DNA from: a virus
Taxonomy: Duplodnaviria > Heunggongvirae > Uroviricota > Caudoviricetes
Length of the DNA stretch: 64,000 bases
Direction: 5' to 3' (one strand)
IMG/VR virus record: IMGVR_UViG_3300012943_000386
Span: 37,662-101,661 of that record
Shown: positions 1 to 35,706 of the stretch, one piece after another
Position numbering within the stretch: the first letter of the stretch is position 1
Layout: the number at the start of each line of letters is the position of its first letter
Translations under genes and position numbers: made by a program
Notes under the pieces: generated by a model
Told to the model about the DNA's origin: nothing
The model's database searches: none
Seen by the model: the letters and a program-made list of their open reading frames with translations, nothing else

Positions 1-140
1 AAGAAGTGCTTCTTGATGCCTATCAGGGCAGCAAAATCATGCAGCTCCTGTAAAGTATCAGCGACCATGTGCGAGTACGTCTTGCGTGGCTTCTTCGAAG
101 CTGCCTTCGTCCAGATTGGCGCGTCGACGTACACTGTCAT
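1..140 (-). CDS. DUF4031-family protein, N-terminal ~46 codons only (gene continues past window start)
   Basis: Minus ATG at 138-140 overlaps upstream stop (ATGA). Translation MTVYVDAPIWTKAASKKPRKTYSHMVADTLQELHDFAALIGIKKHF matches the DUF4031 N-terminal signature (MxVYVDD...SHLxADTxEELHxFA). Not in ORF track because it runs off the edge. Confidence 0.45.
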   Translation of the reverse strand, partial: MTVYVDAPIWTKAASKKPRKTYSHMVADTLQELHDFAALIGIKKHF

Positions 141-283
141 GGGCAGACGTACTCAGTGCGCACGAACGTCCAGTAGCCGCGGACCTCTTTGAAGGTACCG
201 CCGATACCGGCTTCTGACAGGCGAAGCATCTCAGTATGATCAACGTAGGTGATCATGGCATCGCCCAGCCAGTATTCGTACAT
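137..283 (-). CDS. hypothetical small protein (48 aa)
   Basis: ATG 281-283, TGA 137-139 overlapping the next start. MYEYWLGDAMITYVDHTEMLRLSEAGIGGTFKEVRGYWTFVRTEYVCP. Below the ORF-track size cutoff. Replaces the implausible R/S-rich ORF 58..243. Confidence 0.25.
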   Translation of the reverse strand: MYEYWLGDAMITYVDHTEMLRLSEAGIGGTFKEVRGYWTFVRTEYVCP

Positions 284-294
284 GCGCTCCACTG

Positions 295-855
295 TTACTC
301 CCAGTGAACGCCCTTGGCCACGACCGAGCCAATGATCTTGAAGGCAACAACCTTCAGACCAGGCTTCAGCTTGGCAATGCGTTCGGCTTCATCCCTCCAC
401 GAGGCCTCGGTGAGGTGAAGCTTCGGCTTCGAACCAAAGACGAGGATGTCACCATCGACCGTGCCCAGCAGAACACCCTTGCGAGTGATGCCATCGTGAA
501 CACTTGGTGCGTGCGCACGCACGCCAGCCGGAATATCACCGAGGTGCAGGTCACGAATTGCTTCTGCGGTCTGCGCCACGGCGCGCTGCATCTGCACGTC
601 TTCACGCGTGATGCCGCTGGTGTGCGTGAGGAACTGCGCGTGTGCCTTCGCCTTGGCGAAGAGCTGGTCGTGACGGTAGGTGTTGGTCTTGAGCGTGTAG
701 TAGTGACCGCTTGAGGTGCGGGAACCGTTCAGCTGACGAAGAACACCTGTGGAACCATTTGTCGAGAAGACCGCGCCGTCTTTCGACATGTAGTACCCGT
801 CAAGGCTGAAGATGACCAGGCGAAGCGGGAAAAGGTGGCGTCCGTCGAGCAGCAT
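295..855 (-). CDS. hypothetical protein (186 aa)
   Basis: Clean ORF with ATG at 853-855, GGAGAA RBS and a sigma70-like promoter upstream. No recognisable family. Confidence 0.55.
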   Translation of the reverse strand: MLLDGRHLFPLRLVIFSLDGYYMSKDGAVFSTNGSTGVLRQLNGSRTSSGHYYTLKTNTYRHDQLFAKAKAHAQFLTHTSGITREDVQMQRAVAQTAEAIRDLHLGDIPAGVRAHAPSVHDGITRKGVLLGTVDGDILVFGSKPKLHLTEASWRDEAERIAKLKPGLKVVAFKIIGSVVAKGVHWE

Positions 856-887
856 GACAGGTTCTCCAACAACTGAATGTTGACAGA

Positions 888-916
888 TTATAACCTAGTG
901 TCGCTGCTCGGTACAA
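888..916 (-). promoter_or_regulatory. sigma70-like early promoter TTGTAC-N17-TATAAT
   Basis: Minus strand: -35 TTGTAC (plus 911-916), -10 TATAAT (plus 888-893), then GGAGAA RBS and ATG at 855. Confidence 0.4.
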
Positions 917-923
917 TCTAGCG

Positions 924-1349
924 TCAACCTGCCTTGGCAGCCTTGACTACTCGATTTCGAAGATCGGTCGTGCTGAAGGCGTGATCTCGACGGTTGTAGT
1001 ACGTCTCGATACCAAGGGTATCCGCCTCAGCCTTGCCTGTGAAGTCCTTGTCGATGTAGTCGGCCCCAATAATGCGCACATGAACCGGGATTGCCTTGAT
1101 GATCTCAAGCAGCTCTGCCTCGGTCTGATATGGGATGATCTCGTCAACAACGGAAAGCGCCTTCAGCTGAACGTAGCGCTCAACTAGGCTCTGAACTGGC
1201 TTGTTCTTCGTTGGGCGGTCCAGTGTCGGGTCTGTCTGTAGGCCAACTATCAGGTAGTCGCACTGCGTCTTCGCTTCCTGCAGCATCAGGCAGTGGCCCG
1301 CATGCAGAAGGTCGAACGCCCCAAATGTTATCCCAACTTTCTTGTTCAT
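924..1349 (-). CDS. cytidylyltransferase-superfamily nucleotidyltransferase (HldE domain II / TagD-like, HxGH motif)
   Basis: ITFGAFDLLHAGH...DYLIVGLQTD...KPVQSLVERYVQLKALSVVDEIIP...IIGADY...FSTTDL aligns with glycerol-3-phosphate cytidylyltransferase and ADP-heptose synthase domain II. NMN adenylyltransferase fold not excluded. Confidence 0.75.
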   Translation of the reverse strand: MNKKVGITFGAFDLLHAGHCLMLQEAKTQCDYLIVGLQTDPTLDRPTKNKPVQSLVERYVQLKALSVVDEIIPYQTEAELLEIIKAIPVHVRIIGADYIDKDFTGKAEADTLGIETYYNRRDHAFSTTDLRNRVVKAAKAG

Positions 1350-1491
1350 ATTCGGTCCTCACGTAATCCAGCTGATCAATGCAGCTGTTGAAAATATCAA
1401 CGAAACGAGTGTCAAGCTTGAAAGCTAAATTCAGCCCGCGCTCAAGCCGCCGCCGCATTATCTCAAGTTCTTCTACCAGCGTTGGGCTCAC
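1180..1491 (-). CDS. hypothetical ORF, first ~47 codons plausible; overlaps the nucleotidyltransferase gene by ~170 nt
   Basis: ATG overlaps stop of the DnaE-like C fragment (ATGA). N-part MSPTLVEELEIMRRRLERGLNLAFKLDTRFVDIFNSCIDQLDYVRTE is protein-like. Distal part is low-complexity inside another gene. Possible frameshifted remnant. Confidence 0.3.
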   Translation of the reverse strand: MSPTLVEELEIMRRRLERGLNLAFKLDTRFVDIFNSCIDQLDYVRTEYEQESWDNIWGVRPSACGPLPDAAGSEDAVRLPDSWPTDRPDTGPPNEEQASSEPS

Positions 1492-2069
1492 AGAATACTG
1501 GCTTCAATAAGGTGGAGCTGTAGAACAATGACCATCGCGTAGGCAATGGCGTGTGATTTCTTGAACGAGTAGCCGTTCTCATCCTTCGCGTAAAGGATGC
1601 GACGCGTAGCATCTCGCTGCGAGTTGTACAGCTTCGCGTACTGCTTCTTGCCGGGGCGGATGATCGCGAGAACGTCGGCAAGCTCCTCTATGTTCTTCGG
1701 CTTGACAGTGTTGAGGATGTCGCCATGCTTGGAAAGCTGAAACAGCTTCTTCTGCTCGTCGGGAACAGTCAGCAACCCCCAGTCCGGCTCACGCTCGAGA
1801 AGGGCGTCAATTTCTTCCCGCGTTTCGAAGTGATCATAGACATGCAGGTGAAGGAAGTCGATCTTAGCGTAGCCAACGTCCTCAGCGGCGTCATATGGAA
1901 TTGCCGAAAGGCCGGTGATCTTGTCAACAGGAATGTCCTGAGGATGCACACCGCATGGATGCGGTCGCAGCACCCCGTCCTTCGCGAGAGACGCGCGCGC
2001 CCATGGGAACAGTTTCGTTGGGTCGAAGTCTGTTCGAAGGTCAATGTCGACGTCGGCCGAAAAGCTCAA
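1488..2069 (-). CDS. DnaE/PolIII-alpha-like palm domain, C-terminal half (catalytic DxD and third Asp present)
   Basis: SADVDIDL (PDxDxDF), HPCGVHP (HAGGVVI), KIDFLHLHV (KxDFLGL), LFQLSKHG (FQLESRGM), IRPG (FRPGP), RDATRRI (GGADMLRRA), SFKKSHAIAYA (FNKSHSAAYA). Starts at TTG (2067-2069) overlapping the upstream stop. Ends shortly after the KSHAAAYA motif. Confidence 0.7.
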   Translation of the reverse strand: MSFSADVDIDLRTDFDPTKLFPWARASLAKDGVLRPHPCGVHPQDIPVDKITGLSAIPYDAAEDVGYAKIDFLHLHVYDHFETREEIDALLEREPDWGLLTVPDEQKKLFQLSKHGDILNTVKPKNIEELADVLAIIRPGKKQYAKLYNSQRDATRRILYAKDENGYSFKKSHAIAYAMVIVLQLHLIEASIL

Positions 2070-2257
2070 TCGACTACCTCTAGATCATTTGCCCCATTGA
2101 GCTCAGTGAATATCCTGAGCCAGCTTGAGGCAGCAACCCCACTGGGCCACAGGTACGCCTTCACTGGGTCGCTGGTGTAGAACGGTCCACGCCTGCTAGG
2201 ATCAGGCGTCTCCATTGGGATCGTCAAGTATCCGTATGTCGGTGAGTAAATTCTCAT
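2066..2257 (-). CDS. hypothetical protein (63 aa)
   Basis: ORF track. Stop overlaps TTG start of the DnaE-like C fragment. Overlaps the 3' end of the Bfd-like ORF by ~55 nt. Confidence 0.35.
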   Translation of the reverse strand: MRIYSPTYGYLTIPMETPDPSRRGPFYTSDPVKAYLWPSGVAASSWLRIFTELNGANDLEVVD

Positions 2258-2417
2258 TGTTCCTCTCTATCATGTGTTCAAGCATGTACGTGCAGCCAGT
2301 GCATCGATCACAAATTCCGATATGCTCTTGAAGCTGCTCGATGCTCTTCGCTTTCGTGCGTCTCAAGATGTTCACAATGACGTTCTCAGGAATGTCATTG
2401 CAGATGCAGATTATCAA
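2202..2417 (-). CDS. BFD-like [2Fe-2S]-binding domain protein
   Basis: MIICICNDIPENVIVNIL...IGICDRCTGC matches the bacterioferritin-associated ferredoxin pattern MxVCxCxxV...CGxC. Confidence 0.5.
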   Translation of the reverse strand: MIICICNDIPENVIVNILRRTKAKSIEQLQEHIGICDRCTGCTYMLEHMIERNNENLLTDIRILDDPNGDA

Positions 2418-3283
2418 AGCCTAACTTCCTTGACAATCGTTTTGATGTTCTCAATGGTCGAGCGCTCCTGCTGGAAGCGCTGTCCCCAATATGACGAGTT
2501 GACAACCGTGTTGAACGCTTTCAGGTGTCCCTTGTCCATGTCCTTCAGGAACTTACCAAACGAGGGTGCGCAGAACAACAGCCATGGTGACAAGCGGCGT
2601 TGGCGTACCAGCTGAATTACTTGCTGCTCACCAAGGTGCTTGAACACCCCTGAGATATCAACACCATCCTTGTCACAGATGTCCATCAGGTAGTTGATGG
2701 TCTCCTGCACCTGGTCGAGTGGATCTGAGAGCTTGTCCATCCAGCCGAGGTAGACTGAGTAGCACTGCTCACGACACCACAGGTGCGGTGAAACATCTGC
2801 CTCAACCATCAGCTCCATGTACTTGTCTGGTCGCGAGATGTTAGCATCGCGCACGAGGGTGGCAAATTTGATGAAGGCCCTGTAGAACGTTGAGCCCATG
2901 AAGGCAGCTGCTCCAGGGGCGCTGTACCTCTTCAGCTGCATCCACTCACGGTAGAAGCTGTAGGCACCCTGCCCTAGCGTGCTCTTGAACTCACCATGCC
3001 GGCGCTTCTCCTCACAGAAGTGCTTCATGTAACGCGCCTCACTGTGGAAGCGTCGCTCACAGAAGGTGCAGTGCCAATTTCCACGCGCATTCGCGGTCAG
3101 CACCTCAGCATCCTCTATCGGAACGCGGCGCTTCGCGATCTCCTCAGCGTTAAGAAGCTTCGGTTCCCGCGGCTCTTCGGAGGTTGACCTCTGTCTTTTC
3201 ACCATACCAGCTCCAGCCTGGAGACGTGGGTTCGCCGTGTGCTTTGAAGTCGGCGATGAACTTGCGAATGTAGTGCTCATCAA
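2414..3283 (-). CDS. C2H2 zinc-finger-containing hypothetical protein
   Basis: CTFCERRFHSEARYMKHFC is a C2H2 finger. True start is probably the internal Met (MVKRQRS, ~3205), because the first 26 codons overlap the upstream gene. Confidence 0.55.
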   Translation of the reverse strand: MMSTTFASSSPTSKHTANPRLQAGAGMVKRQRSTSEEPREPKLLNAEEIAKRRVPIEDAEVLTANARGNWHCTFCERRFHSEARYMKHFCEEKRRHGEFKSTLGQGAYSFYREWMQLKRYSAPGAAAFMGSTFYRAFIKFATLVRDANISRPDKYMELMVEADVSPHLWCREQCYSVYLGWMDKLSDPLDQVQETINYLMDICDKDGVDISGVFKHLGEQQVIQLVRQRRLSPWLLFCAPSFGKFLKDMDKGHLKAFNTVVNSSYWGQRFQQERSTIENIKTIVKEVRL

Positions 3284-3704
3284 TGTGTGGGGTATTTACC
3301 GTTGCGTAGAGACCAATGGCCACTCGCCCGTAGTCCTTCAGCTGGATGTAGGGGGTAATGGAGTAGCTCTTGTCTGGCGGGGCGTTCTTCAACCCGTTCA
3401 CGTAGCCTGCTTGGGCAGACCAATCGCCGGCGTACAACCTCTCAGCCTCGTCGAAGCACTCATCTTCGAACTTGTTGTACGCGTCGAACCACGTTGTGAT
3501 CATCGCTACGGCATAGTAGCGCTTTACGCGGGAATGGAAAAAGCGAAAGTCGATCCACTGCCATGGGTAGGCAGGATCATAGATGTGATCGCAGTAGAAG
3601 TCACCGTTGTAGGCGCACTCTGGGTAGCGCGTCATCTTGTTCTTTGCCCAGATGTAGCGCGCCTTTCTCTCTCTGCGATTTCTTTCGGGGCGACGGGTCT
3701 TCAT
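3150..3704 (-). CDS. hypothetical protein (184 aa)
   Basis: ORF track; Trp/Tyr-rich globular composition. No family recognised. Confidence 0.55.
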   Translation of the reverse strand: MKTRRPERNRRERKARYIWAKNKMTRYPECAYNGDFYCDHIYDPAYPWQWIDFRFFHSRVKRYYAVAMITTWFDAYNKFEDECFDEAERLYAGDWSAQAGYVNGLKNAPPDKSYSITPYIQLKDYGRVAIGLYATVNTPHIDEHYIRKFIADFKAHGEPTSPGWSWYGEKTEVNLRRAAGTEAS

Positions 3705-3739
3705 AGCACCATTCTACACTGGTTGAGCGTAGATTGAAA

Positions 3740-4066
3740 CTAGTAGCTGATCATCCAATTGATAAGCTCGACGCTCTCCGCGTCAGGTCTAAAGCGGGCG
3801 ATAGGTGAGCCCTTGTCCTGGTAGAAGTGCGGGTCGAGCCTGCCTCTGTTGTGCGCCAGCAGCATTGAGCTGCTGATGAAGCCCCTGTAGACGAGCAGCT
3901 TGTTACCCTCATAATTCTTGGCATCAGGGTAGTTGACAAGCAAGATGAGGAAACCATTCTGCGACCATTCGTCGATGATCTTGAACCGCTCAGGGTTTGG
4001 GTTTGAATTTGGTACAGCGTACGGACTGCTTGAACACGTGCGCCCTGAAAATGGTCCACAGCCCAT
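3740..4066 (-). CDS. hypothetical protein (108 aa)
   Basis: ORF track. The alternative frame 3751..4059 is low-complexity, so this frame is preferred. Confidence 0.45.
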   Translation of the reverse strand: MGCGPFSGRTCSSSPYAVPNSNPNPERFKIIDEWSQNGFLILLVNYPDAKNYEGNKLLVYRGFISSSMLLAHNRGRLDPHFYQDKGSPIARFRPDAESVELINWMISY

Positions 4067-4521
4067 TATGTAGCTTCCTTCTTCAGTTTGGCAATTTCAT
4101 CCTTGTCCCAGCCAAGTTGCTCAGCCATGGATAGGATCTCGCTCTCAGATGGTCGTGGGTTCATTAGCTTCACCTCACGCTCTGACATGTCGTAGAACTC
4201 TTGGATAACCCGCAGAGCTTCTGAATTTTTCTTTTTGCTTTTAACGCCGAGCCAGGAATACCGTTTGTTGGTTTTAGAATTGGCAGCCTGCATCAGCATC
4301 ATCAGAAGATGCGGGTGTTTACCAAGAGTGAACACATTTGGGTTCACAAACTCATTCAACAGCATGATCTGACGAGTGTCAGATGTGCCTGATGCCCATC
4401 GCATCACTACCAACGGTGCGAAACCCTTCTTCTCTTCATCTGTGAGGGCTGTATAGATATCGCCTTGCTTGGGGTCGTTTAGCCTTCCAAGCAAATCGAA
4501 GATGTCAAGTTTGAAACTCAT
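4066..4521 (-). CDS. hypothetical protein, tentatively clamp-loader small subunit (T4 gp62-like)
   Basis: 151 aa with weak resemblance to gp62 (KRYSWLGVKSKK vs KRYGKWAKL). Lies downstream of the gp44-like gene as in T4. Tentative. Confidence 0.35.
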   Translation of the reverse strand: MSFKLDIFDLLGRLNDPKQGDIYTALTDEEKKGFAPLVVMRWASGTSDTRQIMLLNEFVNPNVFTLGKHPHLLMMLMQAANSKTNKRYSWLGVKSKKKNSEALRVIQEFYDMSEREVKLMNPRPSESEILSMAEQLGWDKDEIAKLKKEAT

Positions 4522-4744
4522 GCTCTTTCAATAGCGATGCAATGATGGCGGCATCGATCTCTGCGCAGAGGATGTTTGAGTGGTCGCGCACAATCCTGCC
4601 GTATTCGATTTCTGGAGGGGCACCACGCCTGTGCTCCGTCTGACAGCGCTTACACCATACCAGCTCGTTCTCTCCAGGGTATTCCTTGTCGAGATAGTCA
4701 AAATTGAGCTCTTTGAGCGTGTCATTCAGTTCTATTGTCGGCAT
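4505..4744 (-). CDS. small Cys-rich (zinc-ribbon / degenerate HNH-like) protein
   Basis: WCKRCQTEH...NILCAEID; 79 aa. Confidence 0.4.
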   Translation of the reverse strand: MPTIELNDTLKELNFDYLDKEYPGENELVWCKRCQTEHRRGAPPEIEYGRIVRDHSNILCAEIDAAIIASLLKEHEFQT

Positions 4745-5081
4745 ATTTGGCCTTCATTTGCTCATCAACAAATTTGTCAACGGCTGCATAGAGAATTTTT
4801 CGCACATTTTCTGGGCCCATGCACTCATCATCTATTGCCCAATCATTGGCGTCTGGGTTTTTCCGCGCAAAGAATTCACCGAAGCCACAGCCAGCCCACG
4901 ACCAATTGAAATAGACGCTGAAGCGAATGAGCTCACCAATTTCTGGCTTGCTTGCGGCCATGAGCGCCTTGCGCTTCACCTCACGCTCCTGCATAGCAGC
5001 CAGCTGCTCAGGGGTTGGAGGGGTGCTTGGATCGTGTCGTTCAACTCGGGACATAGAGCTGCTTGAGGGTGTTGCCCTCAA
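4722..5081 (-). CDS. hypothetical protein
   Basis: ORF track. Probable start at internal Met (MSRVERH, ~5054), because the first codons overlap the upstream gene. Confidence 0.4.
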   Translation of the reverse strand: MRATPSSSSMSRVERHDPSTPPTPEQLAAMQEREVKRKALMAASKPEIGELIRFSVYFNWSWAGCGFGEFFARKNPDANDWAIDDECMGPENVRKILYAAVDKFVDEQMKAKYADNRTE

Positions 5082-5250
5082 TCTCGAAGTCTAGGGTTGG
5101 TCCATTCACGGTCATTGGGTGAATGTAGAAGCGCACCTTACCGTCACGCACTTCATGGCGAATGGCATGGTCGATGTAGTTTGCATCCTTGTCCCAAGGA
5201 GCGCCATCAACGTTGTTCCAACCGTTGCGAAAGTATTCTTCAAGGTTCAC
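5041..5250 (-). CDS. hypothetical protein (69 aa)
   Basis: ORF track; tightly coupled to flanking genes. Confidence 0.4.
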   Translation of the reverse strand: MNLEEYFRNGWNNVDGAPWDKDANYIDHAIRHEVRDGKVRFYIHPMTVNGPTLDFEIEGNTLKQLYVPS

Positions 5251-6168
5251 TTAGCACCTCGACAAAGAGATGAAGCAGGCAGCGAGGTTTATTTCCGTGT
5301 CAGCGCAGAGCGCATGTGAGCGGAGGTAGTCTGCAATCGTGATGATCGCTGTCTCCTTGTCCTTCACCTTCAGCTTGTCGATGTTCTGGTAGAGGAACGT
5401 GTAGACGTCCTCGTGCTCTTCACGGGTGGCCGTTTCGCAGACGAGCTTGCGAGCGGTCTTGAAGTCGCCGTTCGCGATGGTGTCCAGAAGACCGAGCTTC
5501 CAATCTGAGACTGTTGCTCCTGACGCATGAGGTGCCAGCAAATCCCCATTGTGAGAGTTCTGCTGGAGAAGCTGAATGATCTGACGAACACTTGGGTAGC
5601 CGAGGTCGATGTAGGTAAGGAGGTGATCTACCTCGAAGCCAACGCCCTCGGTGCCGAGAATTTCAGACGCGAGGAGCGCGACCTTGTCCTTGTCTGGAGC
5701 CCTGAAGTAGAAGCGCTGAAAGCGATCCTTCAGTGGTGGGATGACCTTGTTCTCGTAGTTGCAGGTGGCAATGAAGCGGCAGGTCGTTGAGGCCTGTTCG
5801 ATGAGACCGCGCAGCAGCGCCTGGCCATCGAGTGATAGGTAGTCGAGCTCTTCGAGCTGCACCACCTTGAACTTACCAAGCGGCATGGTCATTGCGAACG
5901 CGTCAACCTTACTGCGCATCGCGTCGATCTTGTCCTTGGAGCAGTTGATGCGGATGACGTCAGCACGGTCTACACCGAGGTCATTGATGAGCGCCTTGGA
6001 AACACTGGTCTTGCCAGTTCCCTGGATGCCAGTCATGAAAAGGTGTGGAATGTCACCATCAGCAACAAACTTTTCAAACTGCTTTTGCTGGCGCTCGTCC
6101 TGAAAGATGACGTCCTTAATGGACTTAGGACGATACCGCTCAACCCAAATCGATGGCTTCATTGTCAT
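5251..6168 (-). CDS. sliding-clamp loader large subunit (T4 gp44 / RFC small-subunit family AAA+ ATPase)
   Basis: RFC box ERYRPKSIKDVI, Walker A GIQGTGKTS, DEAD-like LEELD, SRC motif ATCNYENKVIPPLKDRFQ. ATG at 6166-6168. Confidence 0.85.
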   Translation of the reverse strand: MTMKPSIWVERYRPKSIKDVIFQDERQQKQFEKFVADGDIPHLFMTGIQGTGKTSVSKALINDLGVDRADVIRINCSKDKIDAMRSKVDAFAMTMPLGKFKVVQLEELDYLSLDGQALLRGLIEQASTTCRFIATCNYENKVIPPLKDRFQRFYFRAPDKDKVALLASEILGTEGVGFEVDHLLTYIDLGYPSVRQIIQLLQQNSHNGDLLAPHASGATVSDWKLGLLDTIANGDFKTARKLVCETATREEHEDVYTFLYQNIDKLKVKDKETAIITIADYLRSHALCADTEINLAACFISLSRC

Positions 6169-6221
6169 TCCTACGTGGAGTGTAGCTATCTTATCACACC
6201 ATGTTGTGGCGTAAACAGCGA

Positions 6222-7391
6222 TCAGCGCTCAGTGTAGCGCGTTGTGATCGCTGGTGGCGCTTCAATAGAATTGAGCGACATGACAACGTCTGCCCTACGC
6301 GCGTCAATGTGCTCAAGTGAAGAGCGTGGCGTCTGAAGCTGTGGCAGCGTGATCACATCTCGTTCAGCATCCTCACCCTTCTCTTCAGGAAGAGCAGGAC
6401 GAGAGGTTGACGCCGTGTACTCTTCAACGACTGGAGCTGGTGTGTCGAGCGGCATGTCATCAGGAACCTCAACAGTTGCGCCACCCGGGTGTGGGCCAAA
6501 AAAGATGTCCTTGTCACTATCAGGTGAGTATGCAGCTAGCGTGTCCATTCCTGCTGACAGCTCATCAGCATCAAAGCTTGATTTGAGAACAGCATCTGGA
6601 TCGGCGGCCTTCTCAACCTGTTCCTTGTAGTATTCATCTGTGGTGCCAGTCGTCGTCGTCATCAGCGGGCCTGTGACCTCGCCAACCACCATCACCGGCG
6701 CTGCAGGCTCGGGCTTCTTCCTACGTTCAATGAGGAAGTTACCGGCGATCAGCAGCACGATTGCAAACGGGTCGAACACGAAGATGATCGTGAGGATGAC
6801 GTATTTGACCGCCTTCTCAGGGGTGGTGTTGAACGCCTCAGCTACATAGAGGATTGGGCCGAGGTCAGCGCTTTGTTTGACGTTGGCAGACTTCAGCTGT
6901 GGAAGCTGCACATCAATTTCAACAAGGCGCTTGTTGATCCTATCTGTTTCAGGCGCGAACTCCTGCATTAGCTGGCGCCGCGCACGAGCATAATCAGCAG
7001 GAAGGTTTGCGATCTGCTTATCGATTTCCTGCTTGCGGGCCTGCAGCTTTGTCTGTTCACCCTCAAGCGATGTGATGATGATCGTGTCTTGATTGTTCGT
7101 GACGATGGCGTGCTGGAACTGCTGTGATAGGTAGCCGAACACACCAGTCGACGTGATGAGCATGAGAACCGCCGTCGCCGGGATCATGAACCCCTTCATC
7201 AGCAGCTTGATGTCCTTCCAGTACTTGTAGAGGAAGGAGACGCCAGCGACCTTACCAATGTCCAGCGCGATGGCCATCAAGATGATGACCGGGTTCATGT
7301 TGAAGAGGTGACCTAGGCCGGCGACGCTGATGTAGGTACCAATGCCTTCAATGAACAGAGCTGCAAATAGAACGAGGGCGATGAAGAACAC
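6222..7391 (-). CDS. membrane protein with 4 N-terminal TM helices, central coiled coil and acidic C-terminal tail
   Basis: Hydrophobic N-terminal 130 aa, heptad-like middle, D/E/P-rich tail. Confidence 0.55.
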   Translation of the reverse strand: MFFIALVLFAALFIEGIGTYISVAGLGHLFNMNPVIILMAIALDIGKVAGVSFLYKYWKDIKLLMKGFMIPATAVLMLITSTGVFGYLSQQFQHAIVTNNQDTIIITSLEGEQTKLQARKQEIDKQIANLPADYARARRQLMQEFAPETDRINKRLVEIDVQLPQLKSANVKQSADLGPILYVAEAFNTTPEKAVKYVILTIIFVFDPFAIVLLIAGNFLIERRKKPEPAAPVMVVGEVTGPLMTTTTGTTDEYYKEQVEKAADPDAVLKSSFDADELSAGMDTLAAYSPDSDKDIFFGPHPGGATVEVPDDMPLDTPAPVVEEYTASTSRPALPEEKGEDAERDVITLPQLQTPRSSLEHIDARRADVVMSLNSIEAPPAITTRYTER

Positions 7392-8143
7392 TAGACAGCT
7401 CCAATATGCTTGACGATTTCGGGCAGCACGTCAGCGGCTCTACCCTTTGCGAAAATGTAGTTCTTCCCAACATCACCGCAGCCAGAAAGATATGGCTTGA
7501 GATTTACCTCGACAACCTGCGCGCCGCGATTGAGCGGACCAATGACTAGGTCGGCGGCTGGAAATACGTTCAACGATGTTCCAACCGAAACGACAACGTC
7601 GGCATCCTTTGAAAAACCGATGGCTTCCATGAGGGCAGCAGGTGAAAGGTTTTCGAAGAACCATGTGATGCTTGGGCGGAGGTTTTCACTGCGACATTTT
7701 GGGCAAACAGGAACGCTCTCATTGACCCAGAGGTTTTCCTCAGTGGTGTAATCACACGTATCGAAGTTGATGCCGAAGCACTGAAACTTTGCGATGTTTC
7801 CATGAAGCTCGACGAGCTTCTTACTTCCAGCGGCCGCGTGAAGACCGTCAACGTTCTGTGTTGCTAGAAGGAATGGAACACCTTCAGCTTCACAGCGCTG
7901 CTCAATCTGAGCGATGGCAACATGACCGGCGTTTGGCTTGGCACCTGAGTAGGAAAGATAGCGGTCGCGATAGAACTTCCACACGAGCTGTGGGTCCTTC
8001 TGAAACGCCATAGGCGTGCAGACATCTTCAACGCGATGACCTTCCCATAGACCACCGTCTGTTCGAAAGGTTGGTAGGCCCGAGTCGGCCGATAGGCCGG
8101 CGCCGGTGAAGATCAGAACACCCTTCACTTTGACATCTCGCAC
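7391..8143 (-). CDS. Sir2-family NAD-dependent protein deacylase (CobB-like sirtuin)
   Basis: GAGLSADSGLPTFR NAD-binding motif, catalytic His in VELHGN, Zn ribbon CFGINFDTC...CPKC. Confidence 0.85.
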   Translation of the reverse strand: MRDVKVKGVLIFTGAGLSADSGLPTFRTDGGLWEGHRVEDVCTPMAFQKDPQLVWKFYRDRYLSYSGAKPNAGHVAIAQIEQRCEAEGVPFLLATQNVDGLHAAAGSKKLVELHGNIAKFQCFGINFDTCDYTTEENLWVNESVPVCPKCRSENLRPSITWFFENLSPAALMEAIGFSKDADVVVSVGTSLNVFPAADLVIGPLNRGAQVVEVNLKPYLSGCGDVGKNYIFAKGRAADVLPEIVKHIGAV

Positions 8144-8442
8144 TGTGAGAAGCTAGGGAACAGAGCATTAGCCTTTTCCAAGAACGCGGCACGATCTTCT
8201 ACAGAGTTGAACCAAAACTTGTACTGAAAACCGCCGCCAAGGTAGCTAGGTTTTTCACTGACGAGAAGAGCCTCAATCCCATGGAAGGCTCCATTTGGGG
8301 CCACCTCAATAGGCGAATTCTTGAACATAGCATGGACGCCAGTCCAGAAGGCAATCGTTCTTTCATTGTAAATGTCTGGGCGCTTGATGTCTATCCATGG
8401 CTTACCAAGCTGATCCCAGCGCTCTTCACCAGAGTAGATCAC
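8125..8442 (-). CDS. hypothetical protein (105 aa)
   Basis: ORF track; coupled to Sir2 stop. Confidence 0.45.
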   Translation of the reverse strand: MIYSGEERWDQLGKPWIDIKRPDIYNERTIAFWTGVHAMFKNSPIEVAPNGAFHGIEALLVSEKPSYLGGGFQYKFWFNSVEDRAAFLEKANALFPSFSQCEMSK

Positions 8443-8945
8443 GGCGTGAGCTCCGTATACGAGTTCAGCCAGATCTTACGACGAACTACCCACACGTCTG
8501 AGTTGTCCTCGCGATTGCGGGCGATGAAGTCACCAGGCTCGTATTCTTGAAGGTTCTGAATGTTGTCAACGGTTTCGCCCCACTTGCCGACAATGTATGA
8601 CGGGAGCATGGAGGCGCTGAGAGGAACCTCGTAGAACTCGACGCTGTTCTCAGCCTTCGGCTCGCACACCATCCAGCCATCCTTGTCAATGTCGATGACG
8701 TTGTACTTCTTGAGCAGCGTCTTTGGTGCCTGCTGCCAGGCGTCGTTGCCCTCACCAATGCAGAACATTGTGTTCTCGCCAATTGGCTCCTTGGCCTCAA
8801 GCGTGTCAATGAGGAACTTCGACATGACGGATCGATCAACAAGCAAGTTGATCATGGCCTTGGCACGAAGGCCCTTCGTCTTCTTGGCGACGCGCCATGC
8901 GTCAATGCTCTTAACGTCGAAGATGAAGAACTTTGCCTGGATCAT
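8439..8945 (-). CDS. hypothetical protein (~168 aa)
   Basis: ORF track 8439..9011. Start moved to internal Met (MIQAKFF) that abuts the upstream stop at 8942. Confidence 0.45.
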   Translation of the reverse strand: MIQAKFFIFDVKSIDAWRVAKKTKGLRAKAMINLLVDRSVMSKFLIDTLEAKEPIGENTMFCIGEGNDAWQQAPKTLLKKYNVIDIDKDGWMVCEPKAENSVEFYEVPLSASMLPSYIVGKWGETVDNIQNLQEYEPGDFIARNREDNSDVWVVRRKIWLNSYTELTP

Positions 8946-9343
8946 ACGCTGAGCCAGTTGTTGATGAACGCGAATGGGGAGTTGATGAACGGGATCGTCA
9001 ACACCAAGCACGTCATGTGAACGGCCTGATCAATGCCGATGACAGCAAAGAACCAGTGACGCTCATTCTTCTTCCACAGGTACGATGTTGCCCTAGATGA
9101 GAAGAAGTCGGTTGCCCAGTGGAGGGCGGCGTTGAGCAGCGCAAACTGCCAGCCGAGAAGAACTAGGAATGGAACGGTGTAAACGCTAACATGAATGCTT
9201 AGCCACTTCGCTGAGCCGCTCTTGCTCGTTGCCATCTTGTCCGTCTGGAGGAAGAAGTCATCAAAGAGGTGAAGCCATATCAAGACGATGAGCGTCTTGA
9301 TAACATTGAAGCCAGCATCTGCAGTCACAACGATCGTGTCCAT
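8942..9343 (-). CDS. small integral membrane protein (3-4 TM)
   Basis: Hydrophobic segments throughout; 133 aa. Confidence 0.5.
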   Translation of the reverse strand: MDTIVVTADAGFNVIKTLIVLIWLHLFDDFFLQTDKMATSKSGSAKWLSIHVSVYTVPFLVLLGWQFALLNAALHWATDFFSSRATSYLWKKNERHWFFAVIGIDQAVHMTCLVLTIPFINSPFAFINNWLSV

Positions 9344-9361
9344 GAAAGATCTCCTCAGTCA

Positions 9362-9685
9362 TCAATAGTTGTAGTCGTACGCCACCGTCTCATCGTCAGC
9401 GAGGGCGATGACCCATTCGTCATCTGATTTCCAAACCTTGACGCCGTCGTGCGTGAAGCCAACGGTCCACTTGCCAGGCTGGATAAGAACGATGCTGCCG
9501 TTCTTGAAGTCCTTCACGTCGTTGCCGACGGCCAAAACTTTGGCCCAGCGGGCATAGGTGCCCTGCTTATCAGTTTCCGGACGGGTGAGAAGAATGCGGC
9601 CCTTGTTCTTCTGAAGGAATTGACCCTCAGTGGTCTCATTGATAAACGCGAACAAAAAGGCATTACCAAGCGGTCTGATCGCCAT
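9362..9685 (-). CDS. groES: co-chaperonin GroES (Cpn10) homolog
   Basis: MAIRPLGN...LLTRPETDKQGTYARWAKVLAVGNDV...IVLIQPGKW...DDEWVIALADD parallels GroES MNIRPLHDRV...GGIVL...GEVLAVGNG...VLIMSESDILAIV. A late-promoter motif lies upstream. Confidence 0.7.
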   Translation of the reverse strand: MAIRPLGNAFLFAFINETTEGQFLQKNKGRILLTRPETDKQGTYARWAKVLAVGNDVKDFKNGSIVLIQPGKWTVGFTHDGVKVWKSDDEWVIALADDETVAYDYNY

Positions 9686-9717
9686 GTGTCGGATCTCCTA
9701 AGTTGTCTCTGTATCGC

Positions 9718-9972
9718 TTACTTGGCGGCCTGTGCTGAAGCATCGGCGGCTTCAGCTGCGACTGCCAATGGTGAACCTTCATCAGCGGCAACCTTCTTTG
9801 CAGGTGCTACGATGAAATTCTCCTTCGTCTTGATGCCATCCTTTTCGTCGATGAACTTGCGGCGCTGGTTAACGCTCACAGGCACTGGCGTGGTGGCAAG
9901 CTGTTGCTTGATTGCAAGCATGTCGAAGTCAACGACTTCTTGGCGGGCAGACGTTACGATTTTACGTGGCAT
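9718..9972 (-). CDS. hypothetical protein (84 aa)
   Basis: ATG at 9970-9972, GGAG RBS. GATAAATAC late-type motif ~50 nt upstream. Confidence 0.45.
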   Translation of the reverse strand: MPRKIVTSARQEVVDFDMLAIKQQLATTPVPVSVNQRRKFIDEKDGIKTKENFIVAPAKKVAADEGSPLAVAAEAADASAQAAK

Positions 9973-10019
9973 TAGGGAGCTCCAGAAGAGAATATCGGAT
10001 GTGATAGCTCTGTAGTGTG

Positions 10020-10028
10020 GTATTTATC
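10020..10028 (-). promoter_or_regulatory. T4-type late promoter motif GATAAATAC
   Basis: Plus gtatttatc; ~50 nt upstream of ATG 9972 (hypothetical protein, then GroES). Confidence 0.4.
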
Positions 10029-10049
10029 TTGCCCCGCCCAAAAACAGGT

Positions 10050-10316
10050 TCACGCTATGACCTTGATTTTGGCACCTTCTGGCGGTACCCAATCATCAGG
10101 TTGAGGAAACCTTGAGGTGAAGGTGTATTCTTCACGCTCCTCGCTGTCAAGGTCCTCTGCCTCAGGCCAGAACTGAAGGATCTGATCCTCATTGTCTGCA
10201 TACGCAACGACAACGCTGAACCCATCACCACCACCGGTGCACCACCATGGATGTGGGTATGGAACCTTGATTGGACGGCAATCGTCCTCATTTGCTTTGA
10301 AGCGACAGCGGATCAT
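10050..10316 (-). CDS. hypothetical protein (88 aa)
   Basis: ORF track; acidic. Confidence 0.45.
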   Translation of the reverse strand: MIRCRFKANEDDCRPIKVPYPHPWWCTGGGDGFSVVVAYADNEDQILQFWPEAEDLDSEEREEYTFTSRFPQPDDWVPPEGAKIKVIA

Positions 10317-10534
10317 TCTAGCTCCTTGTCAAGAAAATCAATTGCGAGTAGTCGTTGTGAAAGTTCAGCCTTCAACTGCTCAAGCTGCCATTCACCCCAC
10401 GGTGTAAAGAACCCATCGTAATCATCGCCTTTTGACGCTTCGATTGTCTCAGTAAGCAGGTCATTATTTGAAAGACCCCAAATGCGGTTTTGCTCACGCT
10501 CTGCATTAAGCTTTGACGGCTTTTTCTTTTTAGT
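10313..10534 (-). CDS. hypothetical protein (~73 aa)
   Basis: ORF track 10313..10639 trimmed to MTKKKKPSK. Its ATG overlaps the stop of the DnaE-like N fragment (ATGACTAA). Confidence 0.45.
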   Translation of the reverse strand, partial: TKKKKPSKLNAEREQNRIWGLSNNDLLTETIEASKGDDYDGFFTPWGEWQLEQLKAELSQRLLAIDFLDKELE

Positions 10535-11069
10535 CATGAAAGAATTCTTCCATTGCAATGCCATACTTGATCGGATCGACCTTGTGCAGACCGATAATGA
10601 ACAACACCAACGACGCGCACGAAGAACCACGGCCAACACCCCATACTGTCTTCGTCTCTTTTAGGGTGTCGATGACATAGATGAGCGTTTTCACCAACGG
10701 ATCCATGCCGCGAATTTGAATTTCTTCAAGCTCAACCTTCACTCGCTGCGCGTACTTTGCTGTTGTCTCGTAATCCCAGCGCTGCGCTAATGCCATTGTT
10801 CCAACGGCGTCGAGGACGTAGTTGGCAAGGTCAATATCTTGGTAGCTTTTCGGAACCTTCCACGCCATGTTGAGTGGACGGTTCTTGTCCTTACCTACCG
10901 TAAGCTGCTCCTCAGAAAACTGGTTGAACTGTCTCGTATCCTCACTCTCCTCATTGAGGGCGATGAGCTCTGGAGGGATACCGCCCAGGAAAAGACTTGG
11001 GACCAGCGCAGGATTTACCTGGCTGGTCCCATCGAACCACAGCGTTCTGTCGTTGAGCTCGGTCTTCAC
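10530..11069 (-). CDS. DnaE/PolIII-alpha-like palm domain, N-terminal half
   Basis: C-terminus VWGVGRGSSCASLVLFIIGLHKVDPIKYGIAMEEFFHD matches DnaE [34 protein letters not shown]. Ends exactly where PDIDIDF begins in the other fragment. GTG start at 11067-11069 coupled to the upstream stop. Confidence 0.7.
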   Translation of the reverse strand: MKTELNDRTLWFDGTSQVNPALVPSLFLGGIPPELIALNEESEDTRQFNQFSEEQLTVGKDKNRPLNMAWKVPKSYQDIDLANYVLDAVGTMALAQRWDYETTAKYAQRVKVELEEIQIRGMDPLVKTLIYVIDTLKETKTVWGVGRGSSCASLVLFIIGLHKVDPIKYGIAMEEFFHD

Positions 11070-11071
11070 GC

Positions 11072-11674
11072 TTAGAAGATCGTGGCGAGCCCGATCCAGG
11101 AGCCGATGATCAACACGACGGCGGCGATGATCAGGCGAGTGATCTTCCAGTCGTCGCTCTCTTCATATGACTTGAGCGCGCGGCGCTGCCACAGTCCCCA
11201 AAGGAACGGCTTGGTCTCATACTCAACGCGGCTCGCGAAGCGGGCACGGAAGAGCAGGTAGCCGGCAAGCATGTACACGAAGAGCAGGATACTGCAGCCG
11301 ACAACTACGCCGAGGATTTCCTGGCCGATCAGCTTGTAGACGACCACGCCGACGGTGACTTTGCCCAGCGGAGTTTCAGCGAACTCGTTGGCGGCAACGC
11401 CGATTTCCTTGGCAGCACCTACTACGGCGCGGCCCATGTTGGTTCCCATCTCACCCCATGCAGCCGCTTCAGTTCGCACTGTCTCGGAGATGTTGGCGGC
11501 AGGAACACCTTCAACGATGCCCTTGGCCTTGTCGGCCTTCATCTTGGCGATCTGAAGATTGATCTCTGCCTGCTGTGCGTCATTGAGCCCGCGGGTGTCG
11601 GCCGACTGTGCAAGCACGCCGGAAGTGAACAGCAACGCACATGTCGCTGCAAGTGCAATCATCGTCTTCTTCAT
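11072..11674 (-). CDS. secreted / membrane-anchored protein (signal peptide, C-terminal TM)
   Basis: MKKTMIALAATCALLFTSGVLAQS signal. Hydrophobic C-terminal segments. Confidence 0.5.
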   Translation of the reverse strand: MKKTMIALAATCALLFTSGVLAQSADTRGLNDAQQAEINLQIAKMKADKAKGIVEGVPAANISETVRTEAAAWGEMGTNMGRAVVGAAKEIGVAANEFAETPLGKVTVGVVVYKLIGQEILGVVVGCSILLFVYMLAGYLLFRARFASRVEYETKPFLWGLWQRRALKSYEESDDWKITRLIIAAVVLIIGSWIGLATIF

Positions 11675-11979
11675 GATTTCATCTCCTCTTGATGGATTTT
11701 CCAAACTATCTTCTCGATCTTTTTGACCGCCTCGAGCACCTTGATCTGCTCGGCAGATGGACTTTCAATGGCGACCGTCTCTTCTTCCCAGCGGTGCGAG
11801 CCATAGTACTCGACGGTCTCGCAGATCTTGCCATCCTTGACGTAGGCATCACTTGGGATACCGTGCTTGTCGAGAATTTCGCGCCTTACGGCTCCCCAGG
11901 CGGCGTCGAGAGATATGTCTATCTCGACGCTGCGGCTGATTTCTTCTGTTCCTTCAACCTTCACTTGATTGCCTCGCAC
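11671..11979 (-). CDS. hypothetical protein (102 aa)
   Basis: ORF track. Confidence 0.45.
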   Translation of the reverse strand: MRGNQVKVEGTEEISRSVEIDISLDAAWGAVRREILDKHGIPSDAYVKDGKICETVEYYGSHRWEEETVAIESPSAEQIKVLEAVKKIEKIVWKIHQEEMKS

Positions 11980-12521
11980 GTGAAATGATCCACTGGAACA
12001 CCGCGTAAGCGGAGAAACTGAATGCCCGCGTCATCGCGGTAGAGCTCATCGAACACGACGCGCTTGATGCCGCTCTGCCACATCAGCTTGGCGCACTCAA
12101 TGCACGGAGACATGGTGATGTAGACCGTGGCGCCGAAACACCCTTCACCACCATTCTTAGCAAGTTTGGCGATAGCGTTGCTCTCAGCGTGCAGAACCTC
12201 TGGCTTGGTGCGGAGAGTTGGTGGGATGTCGGTTAGCGAGAAGCCTTGCGGTTCTTGGTGCCAATACTCGCAGACGTCGTCCTTCTCGCCAGCCGGCATT
12301 CCGTTGTAGCCGTCTGAGATGATCTGATCACCCTTGACGATCAACGCTCCAACCTGCTTGCGATTGGCCTTTGAGCGCCGTGCCCACACGTAGGCCATGT
12401 TGATGTAGGCCTCGTCAAGCGAGAGACGATTTGGGTTGACGGTGAGTTCTTGGTTAGTGGATCGTGCTATCATCATCCAAGCCAGTGTCAGGAGTTCGGT
12501 TGAGGGCAAATTCTTCTTCAA
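11961..12521 (-). CDS. dCMP deaminase (cytidine/deoxycytidylate deaminase zinc-binding family)
   Basis: GALIVKGDQIISDGYNG, HAESNAI (HAE zinc ligand), SPCIECAKL (PCxxC). Confidence 0.85.
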   Translation of the reverse strand: MKKNLPSTELLTLAWMMIARSTNQELTVNPNRLSLDEAYINMAYVWARRSKANRKQVGALIVKGDQIISDGYNGMPAGEKDDVCEYWHQEPQGFSLTDIPPTLRTKPEVLHAESNAIAKLAKNGGEGCFGATVYITMSPCIECAKLMWQSGIKRVVFDELYRDDAGIQFLRLRGVPVDHFTCEAIK

Positions 12522-12783
12522 CGTCGAAGATCACCTCGGCGAGAAGCGCGAAAAACCCAAGGTTGCCAGCATCGATCTGCGAGACAAGCTCATGGTAGAG
12601 CCCGTCAGAAAGAAGGCCGTTGAGGCCAGCAACGTTCGTGTATGTTTGAAGGCCAAGGTCAGTGCGCTTCATGACCATGCAGACAACGGCATAGTCGGGG
12701 TCCTTCGTGAGTTCGGCGATCTTCGCCTGAACATCATCAGCGAACTGCACTAACTTTGGGTCTGTATCGTCAGGTTTATCCAT
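12454..12783 (-). CDS. hypothetical acidic protein (109 aa)
   Basis: ATG 12781-12783. Palindrome TATCAC-N11-GTGATA immediately upstream. Confidence 0.45.
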   Translation of the reverse strand: MDKPDDTDPKLVQFADDVQAKIAELTKDPDYAVVCMVMKRTDLGLQTYTNVAGLNGLLSDGLYHELVSQIDAGNLGFFALLAEVIFDVEEEFALNRTPDTGLDDDSTIH

Positions 12784-12793
12784 ACCAGCATTG

Positions 12794-12816
12794 TATCACG
12801 CGCGAGGCTGGTGATA
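12794..12816 (-). promoter_or_regulatory. operator-like palindrome TATCAC-N11-GTGATA
   Basis: In the 35-nt spacer immediately upstream of ATG 12783. Confidence 0.25.
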
Positions 12817-12818
12817 AA

Positions 12819-13208
12819 CTATGCAGGTTTGACATGCACCTTGATTGGTTGCGTCTCGATGCGGTAGAACCTGCCGTCTGCGCAAAGGGCTGGACCAATA
12901 CGCCCGAAGACGTCTTCGGCCTTGACATAATATCGTTCCTTGAAGAACACGCTTTTGTCAGCTGGAACTTTTGCTTGGATAAGGCGTCGACCGTTCACCC
13001 GCCGGGCCTTCGCCCAACCAAGCACGTTCAGCTTGCTGTCGTTGACCAGCGCAATTGCGTGATCCTCGTCAACAGCGAGGACAGGAACCTTAAGTGAGCG
13101 ATAGTCATACCATTTGCCAGCATAGACGTTTGCTGGAACGTGAACATAGAACAGGTTGTAGACCCTGCTCTTGATCGCCTCTTTGATCGTGTCAATGATG
13201 TTTTCCAC
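12819..13208 (-). CDS. hypothetical protein (129 aa)
   Basis: ORF track. Confidence 0.5.
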   Translation of the reverse strand: MENIIDTIKEAIKSRVYNLFYVHVPANVYAGKWYDYRSLKVPVLAVDEDHAIALVNDSKLNVLGWAKARRVNGRRLIQAKVPADKSVFFKERYYVKAEDVFGRIGPALCADGRFYRIETQPIKVHVKPA

Positions 13209-17464: not shown

Positions 17465-17764
17465 TTAGTAGAGGTGGGCTAGAGAGCGGACGTAGCAGCT
17501 ACCATTCAAGCGGTGGTAGAGCATGCACCACTGGTGTCCTTTGTTTTGGCGTGCCACGGTCACTGAGGCTTGCTCATCGCAGCCCGTACACCAGTGGTAC
17601 ACCTCTAAAAGATTTTTCGGAACATCGTCAACGCGCTCTGTGTAACAGAACACGCACTTCATCTGCACTCTGTCTTTTGGAATTCGTGCGAAAAAGTCTA
17701 TCACTTCCGACACTGCTCTTCCTCTATATTGAGAACACTCCAGTTGCATCGCCAAATTTTTCAA
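17465..17764 (-). CDS. hypothetical Cys-rich protein (99 aa)
   Basis: CVFCYTE...CTGCDEQ zinc-ribbon-like. Overlaps the end of the DUF1552 gene by 40 nt. Confidence 0.35.
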   Translation of the reverse strand: MKNLAMQLECSQYRGRAVSEVIDFFARIPKDRVQMKCVFCYTERVDDVPKNLLEVYHWCTGCDEQASVTVARQNKGHQWCMLYHRLNGSCYVRSLAHLY

Positions 17765-35495: not shown

Positions 35496-35706
35496 GATAC
35501 TCCTCAATGTGCGGCGCATCTCTGCAAACGTGGCACTTCGTGCAGCGCTCACCGTCGTAGTAGGTCTGCGTTCCAGGACCAATGGTGATCCACCCGCTGC
35601 CCTTGACCCAATCATGGTCACAGGCATCCGCATGGGCGCGATAGATGTAGATCGCAATCGCAGCGAGGATGAGAAGAATACCAATGAAGGTGAACGTGTT
35701 CAGCAT
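35479..35706 (-). CDS. small membrane-anchored Cys/His-rich protein
   Basis: N-terminal TM FIGILLILAAIAIYIY, then CDHD...CTKCHVC. Confidence 0.4.
   Translation of the reverse strand: MLNTFTFIGILLILAAIAIYIYRAHADACDHDWVKGSGWITIGPGTQTYYDGERCTKCHVCRDAPHIEEYHEHRE

Follow-up and report, generated by a model that had tools for sequence, protein, structure and literature searches.

The stretch of DNA analyzed here, referred to below as the window, comprises 64,000 nucleotides (64 kb) of an uncultured virus of the Caudoviricetes (IMG/VR record IMGVR_UViG_3300012943_000386, positions 37,662 to 101,661 of that record) and carries two small genes that resemble different parts of the alpha subunit of bacterial DNA polymerase III (Pol III alpha, or DnaE). 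The N-half, the putative N subunit of a miniature Pol III alpha, is an open reading frame (ORF) of 179 amino acids (aa) with a GTG start, located at positions 10530..11069 on the minus strand; the C-half, the putative C subunit, encodes 193 aa from a TTG start at positions 1488..2069 on the same strand. The N-half product ends in ...GVGRGSSCASLVLFIIGLHKVDPIKYGIAMEEFFHD (final letters EEFFHD, followed by the stop codon), and the C-half product begins with MSFSADVDIDL. Both ORFs had been pointed out in an initial annotation, and we found them on the minus strand where it had placed them, co-oriented and with exactly the peptides that it quoted. Its statement that each start overlaps the preceding stop holds for the TTG of the C-half, which overlaps the stop of the gene upstream (aTTGA), but not for the GTG of the N-half, which lies 2 nucleotides past the upstream TAA without overlapping it.

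Both halves matched families of the polymerase with scores far above chance. Against Pfam, the N-half matched PF07733 (DNA_pol3_alpha; E = 6.9e-13) and the C-half PF17657 (DNA_pol3_finger; E = 1.4e-5), in each case over part of the profile only (positions 9 to 95 of 260 and 21 to 104 of 166, respectively). The phage families in PHROG were instead matched over their full length: PHROG 11127 (171 positions) by residues 3 to 177 of the 179 in the N-half (E = 1.9e-36) and PHROG 11778 (197 positions) by residues 5 to 192 of the 193 in the C-half (E = 1.2e-58). When each half was compared with the sequences of solved structures, Pol III alpha gave the sole meaningful matches, and a tblastn search of the whole window with E. 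coli DnaE hit these two ORFs alone. Homology of the two ORFs to neighboring portions of the catalytic core of DnaE/Pol III alpha is thereby confirmed.

The break between the halves falls within the palm

Family hidden Markov models (HMMs) were built from 120 homologues of each half and aligned to E. coli DnaE. In this alignment, residues ~99 to 176 of the N-half correspond to DnaE residues 314 to 391, residues ~100 to 142 of the C-half to 600 to 644, and residues 164 to 185 of the C-half to 752 to 773; the register of the motifs further equates D6, D8, and D10 of the C-half with E. coli D401, D403, and D405, and K69 and D71 with K553 and D555. The N-half runs to approximately DnaE residue 394 and the C-half begins near residue 396, and therefore the halves abut within 1 to 2 residues, closer still than the approximately 5 residues proposed initially.

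The break lies inside the minimal fold of a Pol beta-type nucleotidyltransferase, between the GRGSS (GS) loop and the strand that bears the DxD motif, and no residues are lost at it. On the N side, residues ~74 to 179 make up the initial portion of the palm with its invariant nucleotide/triphosphate-binding loop (G144-x-G146-R147-G148-S149-S150), while residues 1 to ~50 form an extra small, strand-rich alpha/beta module with an invariant D13-G14 ("LWFDGT") that lies outside the Pfam palm profile. The remainder of the palm is found in the C-half, with the catalytic D6-x-D8-x-D10, H37 and G40, and K69-x-D71. Neither half holds a complete set of nucleotidyltransferase motifs, given that the GS loop is present in the N-half only and all of the carboxylates in the C-half only; what characterizes a Pol beta-type palm is found in the pair, with GRGSS contributed by the N-half and D6/D8 plus D71 by the C-half.

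Both junctions are tight. The N-half stops 2 to 3 residues past its last DnaE-aligned residue, and the DxD motif of the C-half is located 5 residues from its start. No intein fragments were detected at the break, and neither the end of the N-half nor the start of the C-half features unaligned sequence, in agreement with the initial annotation, which had noticed nothing intein-like at the junctions. The lack of spare sequence at each junction makes an intein impossible, and splicing by an intein or in trans was rejected from the junction sequences. The broader idea that the two products are covalently joined after expression, by a split intein or by RNA trans-splicing, draws on analogy only, namely, with cyanobacterial dnaE-n/dnaE-c and with the intein-split family B DNA polymerase (PolB) of PA5oct-like phages (PMC6892783), whereas the phage halves leave no room for intein fragments of ~100 aa and ~35 aa and lack a Cys/Ser/Thr +1 context. 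We consider this explanation exceedingly unlikely.

Retained and deleted polymerase domains

Beyond the palm, the C-half retains strongly trimmed fingers, reduced to three motif-bearing fragments (FQLSKHG, IRPGK, and FKKSHAIAYA). These are motifs of the fingers domain rather than of the palm (E. coli residues 600 to 644 and 752 to 773), and therefore the fingers are partly present. The initial annotation had counted the corresponding FQLESRGM-, FRPGP-, and FNKSH-type motifs among those of the palm, an assignment that the alignment does not bear out. It had also equated RDATRRI with GGADMLRRA of DnaE; this match has no support in the alignment, and the residues are not conserved in XacN1, GAP32, or Atu_ph07.

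The thumb (E. coli DnaE residues 433 to 510) is deleted, as seen from the spacing between D10 and H37, which is ~26 residues in the C-half versus ~105 in E. coli. No PHP domain was matched by Pfam in either ORF, and tblastn with E. coli DnaE residues 1 to 270 was blank across the window. Likewise, neither complete fingers nor a motif for beta-clamp binding nor an OB domain at the C terminus was found, with the C-half aligning to nothing past E. coli residue 773, and tblastn detected no other DnaE pieces (PHP, thumb, beta-binding, and OB regions) elsewhere in the 64 kb. Thus, of the domains initially listed as absent, PHP, beta-clamp-binding, and OB went undetected by Pfam and tblastn, but the fingers are kept in part. 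What remains is a catalytic core of ~370 aa in total, split over two chains.

Predicted structures, conservation, and selection

Each half was modeled separately with AlphaFold2, using 80-sequence alignments, and both models reached high confidence scores (predicted local distance difference test of 93.9 for the C-half and 93.4 for the N-half). In Foldseek searches of the PDB, the C-half had 14 credible matches and the N-half 12, solely Pol III alpha chains (from Taq, E. coli, and M. tuberculosis DnaE1); for the C-half, the top 14 matches were all Pol III alpha. The fold and profile searches of the separate ORFs that had been suggested initially as a check therefore returned C-family polymerases for both halves and no unrelated families; together, the two halves would presumably reconstitute a palm.

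Residue conservation was assessed in alignments of 124 to 125 sequences, including those from RsoM2USA, XacN1, GAP32, and Atu_ph07. In the N-half, positions G144, G146, R147, G148, S149, and S150 are at least 98% invariant. The same level is reached in the C-half by D6, D8, D10, H37, G40, K69, and D71, as well as by F110-Q111-L112, H115, R138-P139-G140-K141, F169-K170, and H173. The initial observation that all catalytic Asp residues are kept can thus be extended to the family, where they are at least 98% invariant. In comparison with a close metagenomic relative (locus L007), the ratio of nonsynonymous to synonymous substitution rates (dN/dS) was 0.096 for the N-half, 0.059 for the C-half, and 0.156 for the clamp loader encoded between them, values that are approximate given that dS is near saturation; the proportion of nonsynonymous differences (pN) was far below that of synonymous ones (pS). 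These sequence comparisons indicate that purifying selection on both halves is strong. A decaying remnant of DnaE, one of three options raised by the initial annotation, was rejected on the grounds of the dN/dS of ~0.06 to 0.10, the invariant active-site residues, and the existence of hundreds of intact homologues.

The halves co-occur as separate genes in cultured phages and metagenomes

By tblastn, 96 records of cultured phages contain the C-half, and the N-half was detected in these same groups. The carriers comprise Rak2/121Q/GAP32-like phages, XacN1, Xoo-sp13, RsoM2USA, Stenotrophomonas phages CM1/RAS14, Atu_ph07, Phosso, PA5oct-like phages, SCTP-2, and a Vibrio phage. The nearest isolate is RsoM2USA, in which the two halves show identities of 51% and 38%. 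Co-occurrence of the halves in isolates is near perfect, always as separate genes, with a spacing of 4 to 34 kb and in both orders. The N-half lies upstream of the C-half, at 4 to 15 kb, in RsoM2USA (4.2 kb), the window (8.5 kb), Xoo-sp13 (13.7 kb), CM1/RAS14 (14.1 kb), and XacN1 (14.9 kb); the C-half lies upstream of the N-half, at 29 to 34 kb, in GAP32, Serratia phage BF, Erwinia phages, EJP2, SP27, and the Vibrio phage. The spacing in the window is shorter than in most relatives.

Among metagenomic sequences clustered at 90%, the C-half has 1396 relatives, nearly all of 189 to 197 aa, and the N-half has 165 relatives of 148 to 196 aa. They are located on contigs of up to 368 kb, both halves are found together on the same contigs (with about 23 pairs matched in this way), and many of them bear the Joint Genome Institute (JGI) label "DNA polymerase III alpha subunit." One JGI contig, of 101.7 kb, is near-identical to the window. 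The insertion of a large cassette, another option of the initial annotation, was rejected as a recent event, since the split is common to ~96 cultured phages in which the halves lie 4 to 34 kb apart and in both orders.

Rare single-chain forms

A profile of the C-half was searched against 1.84 billion cluster representatives and gave 583 matches at an E value of at most 1e-3. The best 150 of these were inspected and had lengths of 76 to 231 aa, with two exceptions. The first, P0334 (locus L011, positions 1066 to 2193), is one chain of 375 aa in which the halves are contiguous in N-to-C order: the N-half HMM matches residues 26 to 181 (E = 1e-33) and the C-half HMM residues 189 to 374 (E = 5e-38). 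The two parts are connected by just 7 residues, which is a further point against joining of the separate products by an intein. The second, P0373 (locus L010, positions 871 to 2067), is one chain of 398 aa and is circularly permuted, with HMM matches to the C-half at residues 6 to 194 (E = 5e-29) and to the palm portion of the N-half at 232 to 308 (E = 6e-13); the gene that follows, a DnaB/RecA-like AAA_25 gene, starts in overlap with the P0373 stop. Active-site residues are kept in both proteins. Scans of IMG/VR returned no relatives of either P0373 or P0334, and P0373 was its own sole match among 5.8 billion proteins. When the fused P0334 was used as a query against the cultured phages, it hit 186 places in the 96 records and was contiguous in none. 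The comparison of contiguous and split versions in related genomes that had been proposed initially thus has a uniform outcome among isolates, all of which are split. Taken as Rosetta-stone evidence rather than as established variants, P0334 and P0373 are suggestive of the halves acting together.

These observations bear on whether the ORFs might be two independent domain proteins that share no active site. The genes are 4 to 34 kb apart and have different neighborhoods in Rak2-like phages, and AlphaFold confidently folds each half alone, as would be expected of independent proteins. However, the motif set of each half is incomplete, with the GS loop in one and the carboxylates in the other, their co-occurrence is nearly perfect, and naturally fused forms are known in either order. 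Together, these features make the independence of the two proteins very unlikely.

Genes between and around the halves

The halves are separated by 8.46 kb that contain 19 co-oriented ORFs. Here the initial annotation had counted about 20 co-oriented genes, including a gp44-like clamp loader, Sir2, and GroES; the clamp loader and Sir2 are well supported, whereas GroES is a weak match. Scans for promoters and terminators over positions 1 to 13000 of the window gave results at chance level and are uninformative with regard to cotranscription.

A seven-gene backbone that includes the clamp loader is common to the window, RsoM2USA, and XacN1. It is compact in RsoM2USA, insertions specific to the lineage have enlarged it in XacN1 and in the window, and its order is as follows: N-half, an 84-aa ORF, a GroES-like gene, a 389-aa ORF, the clamp loader, a 151-aa ORF, a gene of PHROG 11058, and the C-half. 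All of these are on the minus strand in the window. The conserved 84-aa ORF (9718..9972) is located downstream of the N-half and is followed by a conserved 107-aa GroES/gp31-like protein (9362..9685), identified by a weak match to PHROG 931 (E = 1.8e-6) and by synteny. The conserved 389-aa ORF (6222..7391), upstream of the clamp loader, has a hydrophobic N-terminal half and is read as a putative membrane protein. The large subunit of the gp44/RFC-like clamp loader (5251..6168) matches PHROG 168 (E = 1.5e-74) and Pfam AAA and is syntenic with its counterparts in RsoM2USA and XacN1. Directly after it lies a conserved 151-aa protein (4066..4521; PHROG 11758, E = 4.5e-21) that is kept in RsoM2USA, XacN1, and L007 and that may be the small (gp62-like) clamp-loader subunit. 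The PHROG 11058 gene (2414..3283), which carries a CxxC...H...C motif and probably has an internal true start, lies ahead of the C-half in each of the three related phages. Wherever the large clamp-loader subunit is encoded between the halves, the proteins of PHROG 11058 and PHROG 11758 are present as well.

Two further genes in this region are not part of the backbone. A gene of the Sir2 family (7391..8143, minus strand; PF02146, E = 6e-40), which we place outside the system, is missing at this position in L007 and in the RsoM2USA backbone and was therefore acquired specifically in this lineage, perhaps in connection with NAD+ metabolism or counter-defense. A BFD-like [2Fe-2S]-binding protein of 71 aa (2202-2417, minus strand; PF04324, E = 8.5e-8) is encoded two genes upstream of the C-half, a position that is conserved in the metagenomic loci L007 to L009.

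In GAP32, the clamp loader lies ~1 kb downstream of the N-half, and the C-half adjoins a primase gene; in Rak2-like phages, the C-half is located ~30 kb upstream, beside a primase. Given the conserved backbone and the arrangement in GAP32, the 8.4 kb between the halves are not a recent gene-breaking cassette, and gene order indicates that the split is older than the divergence of the lineages of the window, RsoM2USA, XacN1, and GAP32. The hypothesis of a dnaE gene that was recently broken, or is decaying, through interruption by an 8.4-kb cassette could appeal to the exact abutment of the halves in the DnaE alignment and to lineage-specific insertions among the intervening genes, Sir2 being one of them. 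It is, however, in effect refuted: the split is present in ~96 cultured phages and hundreds of metagenomic clusters with intact halves of ~190 aa, the order is reversed in Rak2-like phages, purifying selection is strong, and a seven-gene backbone is conserved between the halves. The initial annotation had also compared the locus with the position that gene 43 takes relative to 44/62 in T4-like phages. This comparison fits the present sublineage only and fails for Rak2-like phages, with their C-half ~30 kb upstream, and for RsoM2USA, where an 808-aa DNA polymerase and a DnaQ-like exonuclease are encoded ~185 kb from the halves (PMC8504454).

The rest of the window

The window as a whole is T4-like, with UvsW (UvsW_N plus ResIII helicase), a UvsX-like recombinase, a gp32-like single-stranded DNA-binding protein (SSB), ribonucleotide reductase, a T4-type terminase, and tail sheath and tube genes. 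The features expected of group 2 jumbo phages, that is, an RFC-like clamp loader (PHROG 168), a UvsW-type helicase, and an OB-fold SSB, are all found in the 64 kb. No tRNAs were detected in the window. Its largest ORF (897 aa; 45298-47991, minus strand) has no Pfam or PHROG match and was rejected as a candidate PolB, being located among structural genes; its position between the terminase and the tail genes suggests that it is probably structural itself.

Several other genes on the minus strand are worth recording. An SPFH/Band-7 protein (39526-40905), a polynucleotide-kinase-like P-loop protein (35700-36266), and a dCMP deaminase (11961-12521) represent auxiliary functions typical of jumbo phages. 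A 274-aa Thg1-like protein (19695-20519; PF04446, E = 2e-27) belongs to the family of tRNA-His guanylyltransferases and 3'-5' polymerases. A 415-aa DUF1552/HXXSHH protein (17724-18971; PF07586, E = 4e-74), with a weak match to a twin-arginine translocation (TAT) signal, is odd cargo for a phage replication region.

A probable two-subunit polymerase

Profiles, structure prediction, fold searches, co-occurrence, and the rare fusions agree with the central claim of the initial annotation, namely, that the ORFs are complementary halves of one miniaturized DnaE-type core. We consider it likely that they are the two subunits of a minimal split Pol III alpha, forming a noncovalent two-subunit nucleotidyltransferase that is probably an accessory DNA polymerase. 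This corresponds to the minimal Pol beta-fold polymerase in two pieces, perhaps cooperating with the clamp loader, which is the favored one among the three options that had been put forward. The N subunit would supply the first strand and helix of the palm, together with the GRGSS loop that would hold the triphosphate of the incoming nucleotide, and the C subunit would supply the strands with the metal-binding carboxylates D6, D8, and D71 and with K69. The trimmed fingers module of the C subunit may act as it does in Pol III alpha, where it contacts template and nucleotide. The two chains would be translated separately and, with neither intein nor splicing, would associate noncovalently into a core of ~370 aa. 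This complex could then serve in gap filling, primer extension, or repair, beside a family B replicase with its clamp and clamp loader. An accessory role beside PolB appears the most likely one because of the replication-gene context and the retained fingers motifs specific to Pol III. Overall, we infer heterodimer formation, catalytic activity, substrate, and role in replication from these comparisons.

Several points weigh against this interpretation. Processive synthesis on a template is uncertain for an enzyme that lacks the thumb, the clamp-binding motif, the greater part of the fingers, and any proofreading domain. The 64-kb window encodes no family B polymerase, and the presence of one in this genome is assumed from relatives. 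The single-chain forms P0334 and P0373 were each seen once, as single-member clusters on short contigs (2.4 and 3.4 kb) from data sets SRR25229949 and ERZ28653423, the near-saturated dS makes the estimates of selection approximate, and in the literature searched we found no experimental work, biochemical or genetic, on the split enzyme.

Pol beta-fold enzymes are functionally very diverse. The complex could therefore be real and yet be a nontemplated nucleotidyltransferase, active in tailing, in producing a nucleotide signal, or in transfer to protein or DNA modification. Besides this diversity, the missing thumb, most of the fingers, PHP, clamp-binding, OB, and proofreading domains would fit such an enzyme, as would the separate full-size DNA polymerase in the nearest cultured relatives. 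In contrast, FQLxxHG, IRPGK, and FKKSH are fingers motifs of Pol III alpha and are nearly invariant, the sole structural neighbors are C-family DNA polymerases, and the neighboring genes are replication genes (clamp loader, primase, and DnaB-like ATPase). On balance, a nontemplated activity seems improbable to us, and we prefer the accessory polymerase.

It is tempting to go further and to speculate that the pair is an obligate heterodimeric and active C-family DNA polymerase, the smallest known (~370 aa), that shares the replisome with a family B polymerase and a T4/PCNA-type clamp and in which the order of the chains is free; it might, for instance, be dedicated to the lagging strand or to primer extension. 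We put this forward as a tentative possibility that may well not hold. If it were true, P0334 and P0373 would illustrate that two units that fold autonomously can build the palm whatever their order, and the free chain order would fit the proposal by Iyer et al. of an ancestral, prefusion state of the bacterial replicase. Should the pair be active at all, it would be the smallest C-family polymerase core, naturally in two pieces, and would help to define the minimal needs of the bacterial replicase fold. It would also bear on the debate over how jumbo phages came to combine bacterial-type replication parts with archaeo-eukaryotic-type ones, and it could offer a scaffold for split enzymes.

Comparison with known systems

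With bacterial DnaE/PolC (PF07733 plus PF17657; PDB accession no. 2HNH, 2HPI, 3E0D, 5FKU, and 3F2B), the halves share the Pol beta-type palm with its GS loop, DxD, and third Asp, as well as the fingers motifs FQLES-GM, FRPGP, and FNKSH, and these enzymes are the only structural neighbors of both halves. They differ in being one chain of ~1100 to 1450 aa that includes the PHP domain, the thumb, full fingers, and the beta-clamp-binding and OB domains. In cyanobacteria, a C-family catalytic subunit is likewise encoded by two distant genes, dnaE-n and dnaE-c, whose products are joined by a split intein. Unlike the phage halves, however, these carry intein fragments, are spliced to a full-length chain, and are broken at another point; the phage product is presumably a noncovalent heterodimer. 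The "split polymerase" described in the MIJ3 paper is not the same gene but an intein-split PolB, as reported for PA5oct-like jumbo phages (PMC6892783). The multisubunit RNA polymerases of phiKZ-like jumbo phages, with split beta/beta', similarly assemble one active site from several polypeptides (PMC7824862). They share with the present case a jumbo-phage core polymerase distributed over separate polypeptides, but they belong to the double-psi beta-barrel superfamily and to phage group 1 and have been characterized experimentally.

The closest counterpart is the minimal split Pol III alpha that Iyer, Anantharaman, Krishnan, Burroughs, and Aravind described in 2021 (Viruses 13:63, PMC7824862) as a signature of group 2.2 jumbo phages. 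In their description, the enzyme is encoded by distant genes, with the N unit as the nucleoside triphosphate-binding subdomain and the C unit as the Mg2+- and template-binding subdomain, and it is suggested to cooperate with PolB in the synthesis of one strand or in repair and to be a model of the ancestral form of the enzyme. Since this is exactly such a split enzyme, the feature is already known, and the initial annotation, which knew of no described split mini-DnaE of this kind in phages, was mistaken on this point; it is a correct rediscovery of a published feature, both halves of which are already held in PHROG 11127 and PHROG 11778. The group 2.2 enzyme and the pair in the window agree in consisting of two stand-alone proteins of ~170 to 200 aa from distant genes, accompanied by an RFC-like clamp loader, UvsW, and a gp32-type SSB, and here as in the 96 isolates the two genes are separate and nonadjacent. 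Nothing essential differs, except that the window stems from an uncultured phage and that its halves flank the clamp-loader module. New in this work are the conserved backbone that ties the halves to this module and the two single-chain forms, each a single observation; the remainder adds comparative detail.

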